From positions 240,001 to 272,000 of the forward strand of contig JAFGBS010000001.1 of the NCBI GenBank assembly GCA_016933055.1: a stretch of DNA of 32,000 bases, in the 5' to 3' direction. Position 1 is the stretch's first letter, and each line of letters starts with the position of its first letter. Positions 12,639-14,175 of the stretch are shown one piece after another. Origin of the DNA: Promethearchaeota archaeon. Its GTDB lineage: Archaea; Asgardarchaeota; Lokiarchaeia; Sigyniarchaeales; Promethearchaeaceae. The notes under the pieces are model-generated. The model was not told the DNA's origin, did no database searches, and saw only the letters and a program-made list of their open reading frames with translations. The position numbers and the translations under genes were made by a program.

Positions 12639-12921
12639 TAATCAAATTAAGTGCTATGGTATCCTACCTTACCTAACGGTTAGGTCTCTATTTTTAATTC
12701 TGCTGTAATTTAGAATCTTATTCTCTTAATTACGCTAAAAGCTTATTACGTAGTTCTATACCTGAGGATACGAACAATTGTAGGTTTTAGCATAGGGGTG
12801 CCTAAGCACCCATAAGGGTGTTCTATAGAACACCTTTTTGACGTTCGGTAGAGTTTTATGATAGTTTTACGTAGTTCCCTTTTACTTTTTAATTTAAAGG
12901 GTGGAATAAGTGTTGTGATTA
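12639..12921 (-). repeat. Structured non-coding repeat, copy A
   Basis: On the minus strand it starts TAATCA and ends TTGATTA. It shares colinear blocks with copy C (22/25 and 23/27 nt identical). Hairpins at 12796-12811 and 12817-12834. Confidence 0.75.
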
Positions 12922-13340
12922 GTCAACATCTATTCCGTGTTATCTAAAAATTTTCCCTTAGGTGAATAGAGGGTATATAATACGAAGTGCGATCCATTTG
13001 GTGTAAAATCAATATATACATGCGTCATGCTACGCATTCGGCTTTAGCGTGCGTGCTCAATAGAACACGTGATAGGGATCTTCCAATTGGACCACGTTCC
13101 CGCACTTCTTACTTAAGTATTCTACATCTGTTCGGGGTATTTAAACGAATCACGATATGTTACCAATCGTGTAACACCTATCCATCAGATGTCTTAGGCA
13201 AACTCGGATAGAAAAACCTATCAATCGTATTATTGGATCGTAATTTGATTCTGATTTATACGGTTGACGGTGTTTTACGATAGTATCATGTTGAAGGACT
13301 TCAATTTTTGATGGATAGACCCGTATAGATGTTGATTACA
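12920..13340 (-). repeat. Structured non-coding repeat, copy B, bounded by imperfect terminal inverted repeats (MITE-like)
   Basis: TAGTCAACATCTAT at 12920 and ATAGATGTTGATTA at 13325 are inverted (13/14). An ACTATCGTAA block lies about 55 nt from the right end. Several internal hairpins. Confidence 0.65.
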
Positions 13341-13531
13341 GAAAAAAATATTGAAGAAGGAATTATTCCACAATCTACAATACGGTTTTTTTCACATTTT
13401 TTAAATTCTGATTGTAAAATCAAATTGAAAATTCCTCTAAACAAGTTGTTTTTTCGAGTTAGATTTTATTTCTTTTTCATAACTAGTTATAATTTACAAC
13501 CCGCAAAATAAGTGAATTTCGAATCTCTTTC

Positions 13532-13879
13532 ATGATTATGGCAGATATTCCATGGTGGAAAAAAACTAAAGGGTATCAAATTTTTCCGAAATCATTTAAA
13601 GATACAAGTGGGAACGGGATCGGAGATTTAGAAGGAATTATTGAAAAATTGGATTATATCCAAGATTTAGAAATTGAAACTATATGGCTAAATCCTTTTT
13701 ATAAAAGTCCCTTTTGAGATGCTGGGTATGATATTAGTGATTATGAAGACATTGCTCCATTTTTAGGAACTTATGAAATCTGCATGAAACTCATTGATGA
13801 AATTCACCAACGGAATATGAAAGTGGTTTTTGATATGGTGTTAAACCATACAAGTGATCAACATCCATGGTTTAAATAA
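13532..13879 (+). pseudogene. GH13 (oligo-1,6-glucosidase / alpha-glucosidase-like) N-terminal fragment
   Basis: [30 protein letters not shown]...SPF*DAGYDISDY...DMVLNHTSDQHPWFK*. In-frame TGA at 13715-13717 and truncation at TAA 13877-13879. Confidence 0.88.
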
Positions 13880-13920
13880 ATAAAAGAAAGACTACAATGA
13901 TTATTTAAAATTGAATATTA

Positions 13921-14175
13921 TGTAATCAACATCTATTCCGACCTTTCGAGCGAATAGGTAATCCCAAACACTTAAAACTATCGTAATACTCCACCGAATT
14001 GGAAAAGTTGCAACGTGACCAAAACCTATCCCATAGGATAGGTGGGTTTAAGGAACACCTACGGTATAACCTATGAATCTGTTCGACCAGAATAGAGGAA
14101 TAGGCTTATAGCGTAGTTAAAAGAAGAAGGTGTTGAAAACATCTAAACCCTAAAGGATAGCGTGGAAATTGATTA
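13921..14175 (+). repeat. Structured non-coding repeat, copy C
   Basis: Starts TGTAATCAACATCTATTCC. Blocks at 13974-13998 and 14099-14125 match copy A. Perfect hairpin ACCTATCC-CATA-GGATAGGT at 14024-14043. Ends TTGATTA. Confidence 0.75.

Follow-up and report, generated by a model that had tools for sequence, protein, structure and literature searches.

A previously undescribed repeat family of a Loki-type Asgard archaeon, probably composed of orphan non-autonomous transposons that target TA

RUP, a repeat of Streptococcus pneumoniae, is mobilised by IS630-Spn1. IS30 produces a duplication of 2-3 bp, uses palindromic hot spots as targets and inserts next to its own inverted ends. Many MITEs of prokaryotes have inverted ends, a terminal TA, a target duplication and transcripts with long stem-loops (PMC2229807). 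The Correia/NEMIS elements of Neisseria, the ERIC/IRU elements of enterobacteria and RUP are small, non-coding, AT-rich and mostly intergenic, are present in tens to hundreds of copies and are taxon-specific, often with no transposase in the same genome (PMC2229807; PMC11602168). Among archaea, the Sulfolobus MITEs SM1-SM4 and the palindromic repeats of Methanocaldococcus are non-autonomous elements that are thought to be mobilised in trans (PMC2229807; PMC13343696). Our literature search found no description of the family presented here, or of MITEs in Asgard archaea; it is a previously undescribed, abundant repeat family of a Loki-type Asgard genome.

Like Correia, ERIC and RUP, the new family is small, non-coding, AT-rich, mostly intergenic and taxon-specific, with inverted ends, a terminal TA and predicted stem-loops. 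In contrast to these repeats, which measure ~100-200 nt, its elements measure 225-430 nt and are modular, a common ~100-nt 5' module being joined to differing 3' parts, and the 3' end of the short type is very asymmetric. The extended symmetric target, TTTT-NNN-TA-NNN-AAAA, is also distinctive, the copies are far more diverged although their blocks are near-invariant, the host is an Asgard archaeon, and there is no sequence similarity. Insertion at TA, with a probable duplication of the TA, is a trait shared with IS630/Tc1-mariner and their MITEs, which duplicate it, and IS630 is present in related Lokiarchaeal genomes; however, the genome studied here and that of its congener are without an IS630-type transposase, and the ends are unrelated. 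From what is generally known of IS30, the family appears to resemble it in its putative short duplication, its symmetric AT-rich target and its insertion at the ends of existing copies, but a search for an rve-type integrase-fold gene found none in either genome of the genus, and no sequence evidence links the ends. The Sulfolobus MITEs and the Methanocaldococcus repeats belong to other phyla and would not be expected to be related in sequence; the Sulfolobus MITEs, unlike the family described here, have identifiable parent IS elements.

The window analysed is a stretch of 32,000 nucleotides from a Promethearchaeota archaeon (GCA_016933055.1, contig JAFGBS010000001.1, positions 240,001 to 272,000), in which an earlier note had described three copies, A, B and C, of a family of structured non-coding repeats. 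The features of the window are as follows:

12639..12921, minus strand: copy A, a full-length short-type copy of 283 nt, with its 5' TA at 12920-12921 and its 3' TA at 12639-12640
12920..13338, minus strand: copy B, a long-type copy of 419 nt with inverted ends of ~18-20 bp
13532..13880, plus strand: 5' relic of a GH13 alpha-amylase-family gene, interrupted by an in-frame TGA at 13715-13717, ending after ~115 codons just before copy C
13923..14175, plus strand: copy C, a full-length short-type copy of 253 nt, with ACA and then AAAA downstream
14058..14118, plus strand: central long hairpin of copy C, with the outer stem CTACGGT/TAGCGTAG, inner stems and a 3x3 G/A-rich internal loop
20550..20635, plus strand: extra partial copy, covering the first ~75 positions of the 5' module

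The conserved blocks, the TTGATTA ends and the four hairpins named in the earlier note are all present, and A aligns with C over its full length. The bounds of A and the end of C at 14175 also held, while the start of C lies at 13923 rather than 13921. Copy B does share its first ~100 nt with the others, as had been noticed, but it is actually a 419-nt element of a longer subfamily, whose members measure 375-430 nt. It is adjoined head to tail by A, and a single TA (12920-12921) is common to both. In element orientation, A is followed by GTT and then GAAAAA, and B is preceded by TTTTTTT-CTG-TA. A seeming extra plus-strand copy from ~12919 was discarded, as it is the 3' inverted end of B.

These copies fill a gap of 1.7 kb (12,505-14,218) between two convergent genes: a winged-helix regulator, which ends at 12505, and, on the minus strand, a gene whose end is at 14218. 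Around the gap lie two paralogous genes, at 11318-12505 (+) and 15351-16871 (-), with HVO_0163-type and ArsR/MarR-type winged-helix domains. The archaeal-type regulators beside the repeats are in keeping with a Loki-type Asgard host. B and C face each other with their 5' ends across the GH13 relic, which is outside the element and whose presence indicates that the gap between B and C is a decaying region. Given that it is an old relic, with a protein just 65% identical to that of an intact paralogue on contig 30 (C30:14710-15048), it was rejected as a captured piece of the pack-MITE kind. Elsewhere in the window, a 230-nt stretch at 20832-21060 (+) is repeated on another contig (G000:C2:309632-309859) with 87% identity; this repeat is separate from the A/B/C family.

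The genome searched comprises 3.76 Mb in 36 contigs, with ~35% G+C, and is 91% complete. Copy C found 21 places in it by BLAST, and an iterated nhmmer profile gave 94 full or partial matches, with E-values down to 1e-50. The number of repeats is far above chance, which bears out the earlier description of the three copies as members of a family. Thirteen of the 94 profile matches are full-length short-type copies of 225-283 nt, ~45 cover just the first ~100 positions and ~15 just positions ~101-214. The copies that seem to consist of the 5' module only are the starts of longer subfamilies (330-430 nt), which have conserved blocks of their own. No ORF is conserved across the family, and the indels are not multiples of three.

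With regard to related genomes, a model of the 5' module gave 79 matches in the genome itself and seven in the sole congeneric genome, but none in 12 other genomes of the same archaeal family, three of which are complete. BLAST with copy C against 30 relatives returned nothing; as the copies of the congener were missed in this way, a profile model was needed. Public contigs were scanned with a single 24-base IUPAC pattern of the 5' end. This pattern gave 13 matches in 185,579 species genomes, all by chance, 33 matches in JGI metagenome contigs, in which the likeness was limited to the pattern itself, and zero matches in viral contigs. Judging by these sequence searches, the family does not extend beyond a single genus of Loki-type Asgard archaea.

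Most copies within the genome are 60-75% alike, with conserved blocks that are nearly invariant, and certain pairs of copies at separate loci are 86-96% identical. The latter point to more recent movement, and the two ranges together indicate that activity was stretched over a long time. The copies of the congener are 77-80% identical to one of the subfamilies found here, compared with 70-73% for the flanking coding DNA, which suggests either constraint or transfer. Several contigs end inside family copies (C18:2928-3011, C35:46125-46208, C23:17967-18066, C20:4557-4778 and C30:124620-124841), and two of these contig ends are identical over 86 nt. The assembly is thus fragmented by family copies, of which some near-identical ones may be collapsed in it or absent from it. 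Another repeat family, unrelated to the first and with copies of ~240 nt that are 85-91% identical, was found at C17:157814-158060, C17:785254-785499, C17:808592-808834, C15:49176-49449, C17:381736-381994 and C9:1-175; the genome thus holds several MITE-like families.

All copies start with TA-ATCAACAYCTATTC, and the ~100-nt 5' module is common to all subfamilies, which span ~225 to ~430 nt. TTGAT-TA is the end of all subfamilies, and in full-length short-type copies the terminal sequence is ...GGATAGCAYG..TTGAT-TA. In the long type, the whole 5' end recurs in inverted form at the 3' end, over ~20 bp (~18-20 bp); the inverted ends of the short type comprise just 7 bp (TAATCAA/TTGATTA) plus a shifted CTATYC motif. 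The CTATYC/GRATAG motif is ~7.5-fold enriched in the elements, in both orientations, a pattern that resembles the subterminal repeats to which transposases bind and that may have the same binding role. The long subfamily, as represented by 12920-13338 (-) in the window, exhibits three TATA-box-like words within conserved blocks (GTATAAAT, TTTAAATA and CTATATAC) and a perfect palindrome, TCCAATTGGA. These words and the palindrome may be internal promoters or protein-binding sites.

The copies lie in a symmetric target, TTTT-NNN-TA-NNN-AAAA, and most have TA on both sides. Across 70 5' ends, T was found at positions -7, -6, -5 and -4 in 69, 73, 87 and 83% of cases, respectively, followed by three variable bases and then by TA (83 and 80%). 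TTTT is present at most 12 nt upstream of 54% of the copies, compared with 13% of control intergenic TA sites. The full-length 3' ends show the mirror image downstream, with TA, three variable bases and a run of A, and a copy in the congener follows the same flank rule. The tips of the element including the TA (TT-GAT-TA and TA-ATC-AA) match the best conserved positions of the target, TT at -5/-4 and AA at +4/+5. This likeness of the tips and their TA to the target offers a simple explanation of how neighbouring copies in arrays come to have one TA in common; such single-TA junctions, in head-to-tail or head-to-head arrangement, are also present at several further loci.

Predicted ORFs contain none of the 94 copies; all are intergenic, save one copy that splits a gene. 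Convergent, divergent and tandem gaps are all used, and in tandem gaps the copies have the same orientation as the genes in 20 cases and the opposite one in 21. The only recurrent neighbours within 2.5 kb are small paralogue groups of unrelated metabolic genes (hydrolases, acyl-CoA synthetases, MFS transporters and acyltransferases). The use of all gap types, the absence of an orientation bias and the unrelated neighbours argue against a cis-regulatory RNA tied to particular genes.

The copy that splits a gene, C17:704101-704367, divides a URO-D-family gene into two open halves of 181 and 229 codons. In two relatives, the orthologues are uninterrupted, with 412 aa and 53% identity. Upon removal of 265 nt, corresponding to the element and one TA, the frame is restored and the residue count across the junction is exactly as in the orthologues. 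In the rejoined gene, the T-run and the A-run are read as codons, and this junction therefore identifies both runs as host DNA rather than as parts of the element. A duplication of the TA is suggested by one comparison of the filled gene with its intact orthologues, which are 53% identical; of the two TAs, one appears as TC on the gene strand (GA in element orientation). The product of the split gene (G000:C17:703557-705057; L038:624-2124) has an MtaA-like methyltransferase or decarboxylase fold, and both halves are stop-free, which indicates either that the insertion is recent or that the gene still works somehow. A second candidate for a split gene, at C2:282698, was rejected, as the element there lies between two tandem genes. 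With regard to empty sites in relatives, for which the earlier note had called, the URO-D gene is thus intact in two relatives, but the diverged congener offers no clean orthologous empty site: its intergenic DNA at orthologous sites is too diverged to align, and one of the sites holds only end fragments here while another differs by an extra gene. The contigs of four public sequencing runs, placed on the region, contain no clean joint across an element, and two metatranscriptome runs of the source study gave nothing that matches the region; these outcomes speak neither for nor against the family's mobility or transcription.

No gene for an enzyme that moves these elements was recognised. The genome, which is 91% complete, gave no match to PF01797 (Y1 TnpA), PF07282 (TnpB zinc ribbon), PF13358 (IS630 DDE_3), PF00239 (serine recombinase), PF01548 (IS110 DEDD) or PF00665 (rve/IS30). 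The one match to PF01609 (IS4/IS5-type) is a decayed fragment on contig 8 that is not close to any family ends, and none of the genome's four tyrosine recombinases is linked to the repeat family. When the genome was compared with itself, no repeat of at least 85% identity exceeded ~860 bp. Where two family ends lie 0.15-6 kb from each other, they enclose just unrelated host genes, with no shared ORF, and no autonomous relative with matching ends was found in the genome, the congener, the 12 other genomes of the archaeal family or the pattern scans of public contigs. Since neither an enzyme nor a larger end-bounded element was found, the family is an orphan. IS630 elements are present in 14 of 61 related Lokiarchaeal genomes searched; they were rejected as parents, as the IS630 ends in a complete related genome are unlike the ends of the family.

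We consider it likely that A, B and C are copies of a lineage-specific, orphan, TA-targeting superfamily of non-autonomous, MITE-like DNA transposons. That these repeats are mobile elements, one of the two options given in the earlier note, is well supported by the inverted ends, the TA on both sides, the symmetric target, the insertion in a gene that is intact in relatives, the restriction to one genus and the arrays. We propose that a transposase supplied in trans would bind the terminal ~16-20 bp, and probably also the CTATYC/GRATAG subterminal repeats, and would insert the element at the central TA of the target, duplicating this TA. Each new junction would again be target-like, with TT-GAT-TA on one side and TA-ATC-AA on the other, so that later insertions could take place at the ends of older copies and give rise to arrays. 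The internal hairpins would most likely be cis-acting and have been kept in lineages that went on transposing; proteins could bind them as palindromes, or they could work as structures of a single strand. The enzyme, absent from the assembly, may have been lost, may lie in unassembled or extrachromosomal DNA, or may belong to an unrecognised family. Several observations speak against the MITE reading. With copies just 60-75% alike, MITEs in neutral decay would not usually retain near-invariant blocks, as this family does. No transposase was found, nor a larger end-bounded element with a shared ORF, and the short type has an inverted end of just 7 bp at its 3' side. The copies of the congener are closer to those found here than the flanking coding DNA of the two genomes is, the TA duplication draws on one filled/intact comparison, and the likeness of the tips to the target would suit a site-specific recombinase equally well.

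An unlikely alternative is that the elements are excised circles moved by a site-specific recombinase with a 2-bp crossover, rather than by a DDE transposase. The joined ends, TTGAT-TA-ATCAA, would then recombine with the similar target TTTT-NNN-TA-NNN-AAAA, and the TA on both sides would arise without a true duplication. Recombinases, including serine recombinases and IS110-type elements, typically act on donors and targets that are alike around a short crossover. The elements exhibit such a likeness, as their tips and TA match the best conserved target positions; in addition, the joined ends would form a perfect palindrome and the arrays share exactly one TA. Nevertheless, the pattern is not diagnostic, as IS30-type DDE enzymes likewise target their own ends and palindromic hot spots. 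Neither PF00239 nor PF01548 was found in the genome, and the four tyrosine recombinases would need an identical overlap longer than TA.

A functional structured RNA appears quite unlikely. According to this explanation, the repeats would be spread RNA genes or RNA-bearing mobile elements, with an RNA either of the guide or bridge type, serving an enzyme that escaped recognition, or of a regulatory or processing kind. Among the structures of the short type, conservation is highest in the central hairpin, in which the outer stem CTACGCT/TAGCGTAG is followed by A-U-rich, CCTAT/ATAGG and distal stems. The covariation of this hairpin was assessed on a model-guided alignment of 48 matches, with shuffled (500) and slid-partner controls. 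In the outer helix, 90% of cells are paired, and the hairpin reaches a covariation score of 0.160, compared with 0.092 in the shuffles, none of which (0/500) reaches 0.160, and 0.04-0.09 with slid partners, although the shuffles overstate the significance because the copies are related. This is real evidence that the pairing of the central hairpin is maintained. Further points in favour of an RNA are the variable hairpins, for which other hairpins substitute at the same places, the near-invariance of the blocks at 60-75% overall identity, and the better conservation of the copies between two species than of the flanking coding DNA.

In contrast, the 5' module common to the subfamilies was found to be without any consensus base pair, which makes it look more like a signal conserved in sequence than like a fold. 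The selection on structure suggested by the earlier note is therefore borne out for the central hairpin, which covaries above the controls, but not for the 5' module. The strand asymmetry is also weak, as the modelled helices contain 71 G-U and 52 A-C combinations, and in minimum free energy the element strand has no advantage. A search of the whole window against Rfam gave no match at the gathering threshold and, at E-values up to 10, just a chance-level match to Yfr11 (E 3.2), so that the Rfam comparison proposed earlier yielded no matching family. The lack of an orientation bias with respect to genes, of a recurrent neighbour gene and of any spread beyond one genus also counts against an RNA function. 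The fold could be formed by RNA, by single-stranded DNA or by a DNA palindrome, and the tests do not single out the folding strand.

It is very unlikely that the conserved covarying core, comprising the central hairpin with its G/A-rich loop and the invariant blocks, is a working RNA on a mobile element that is moved by an enzyme of an unrecognised family. Such an RNA would guide or scaffold the recombination of its own element, or would be excised from transcripts. Excision from transcripts would keep the split URO-D gene functional, and would explain why both halves are still open.

IS200/IS605 elements have no inverted ends and make no duplication; they recognise the target on one side only, by a short specific word 3' of which they insert, and they have a partner gene. 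It is highly improbable that the repeats derive from such single-strand transposons, with hairpin ends and a right end carrying a guide-RNA scaffold, for although the ends are hairpin-rich, a TCAAC motif lies near the 5' end and no IS family is more common in Asgard genomes than IS200/IS605 (PMC13343696), the elements have inverted ends, TA on both sides and a symmetric target with both flanks constrained, the genome holds no Y1 transposase or TnpB zinc-ribbon match, and the omegaRNA/HEARO-type models of Rfam found nothing, so that the loose likeness to IS200/IS605 and HEARO-omegaRNA ends put forward in the earlier note was not upheld.

The reading of A, B and C as copies of MITE-like transposons explains several structured intergenic elements across the genome as one family. 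The family opens no long-standing question unless its conserved core acts as RNA; if it does, the core would represent an Asgard-specific, RNA-bearing transposon system without a known relative. It also marks where the assemblies of this lineage break, and flags at least one gene that has been disrupted by an insertion. Finally, the precise end sequence and the target rule provide a handle with which the missing transposase could be traced in closed genomes of the genus or in its extrachromosomal elements.
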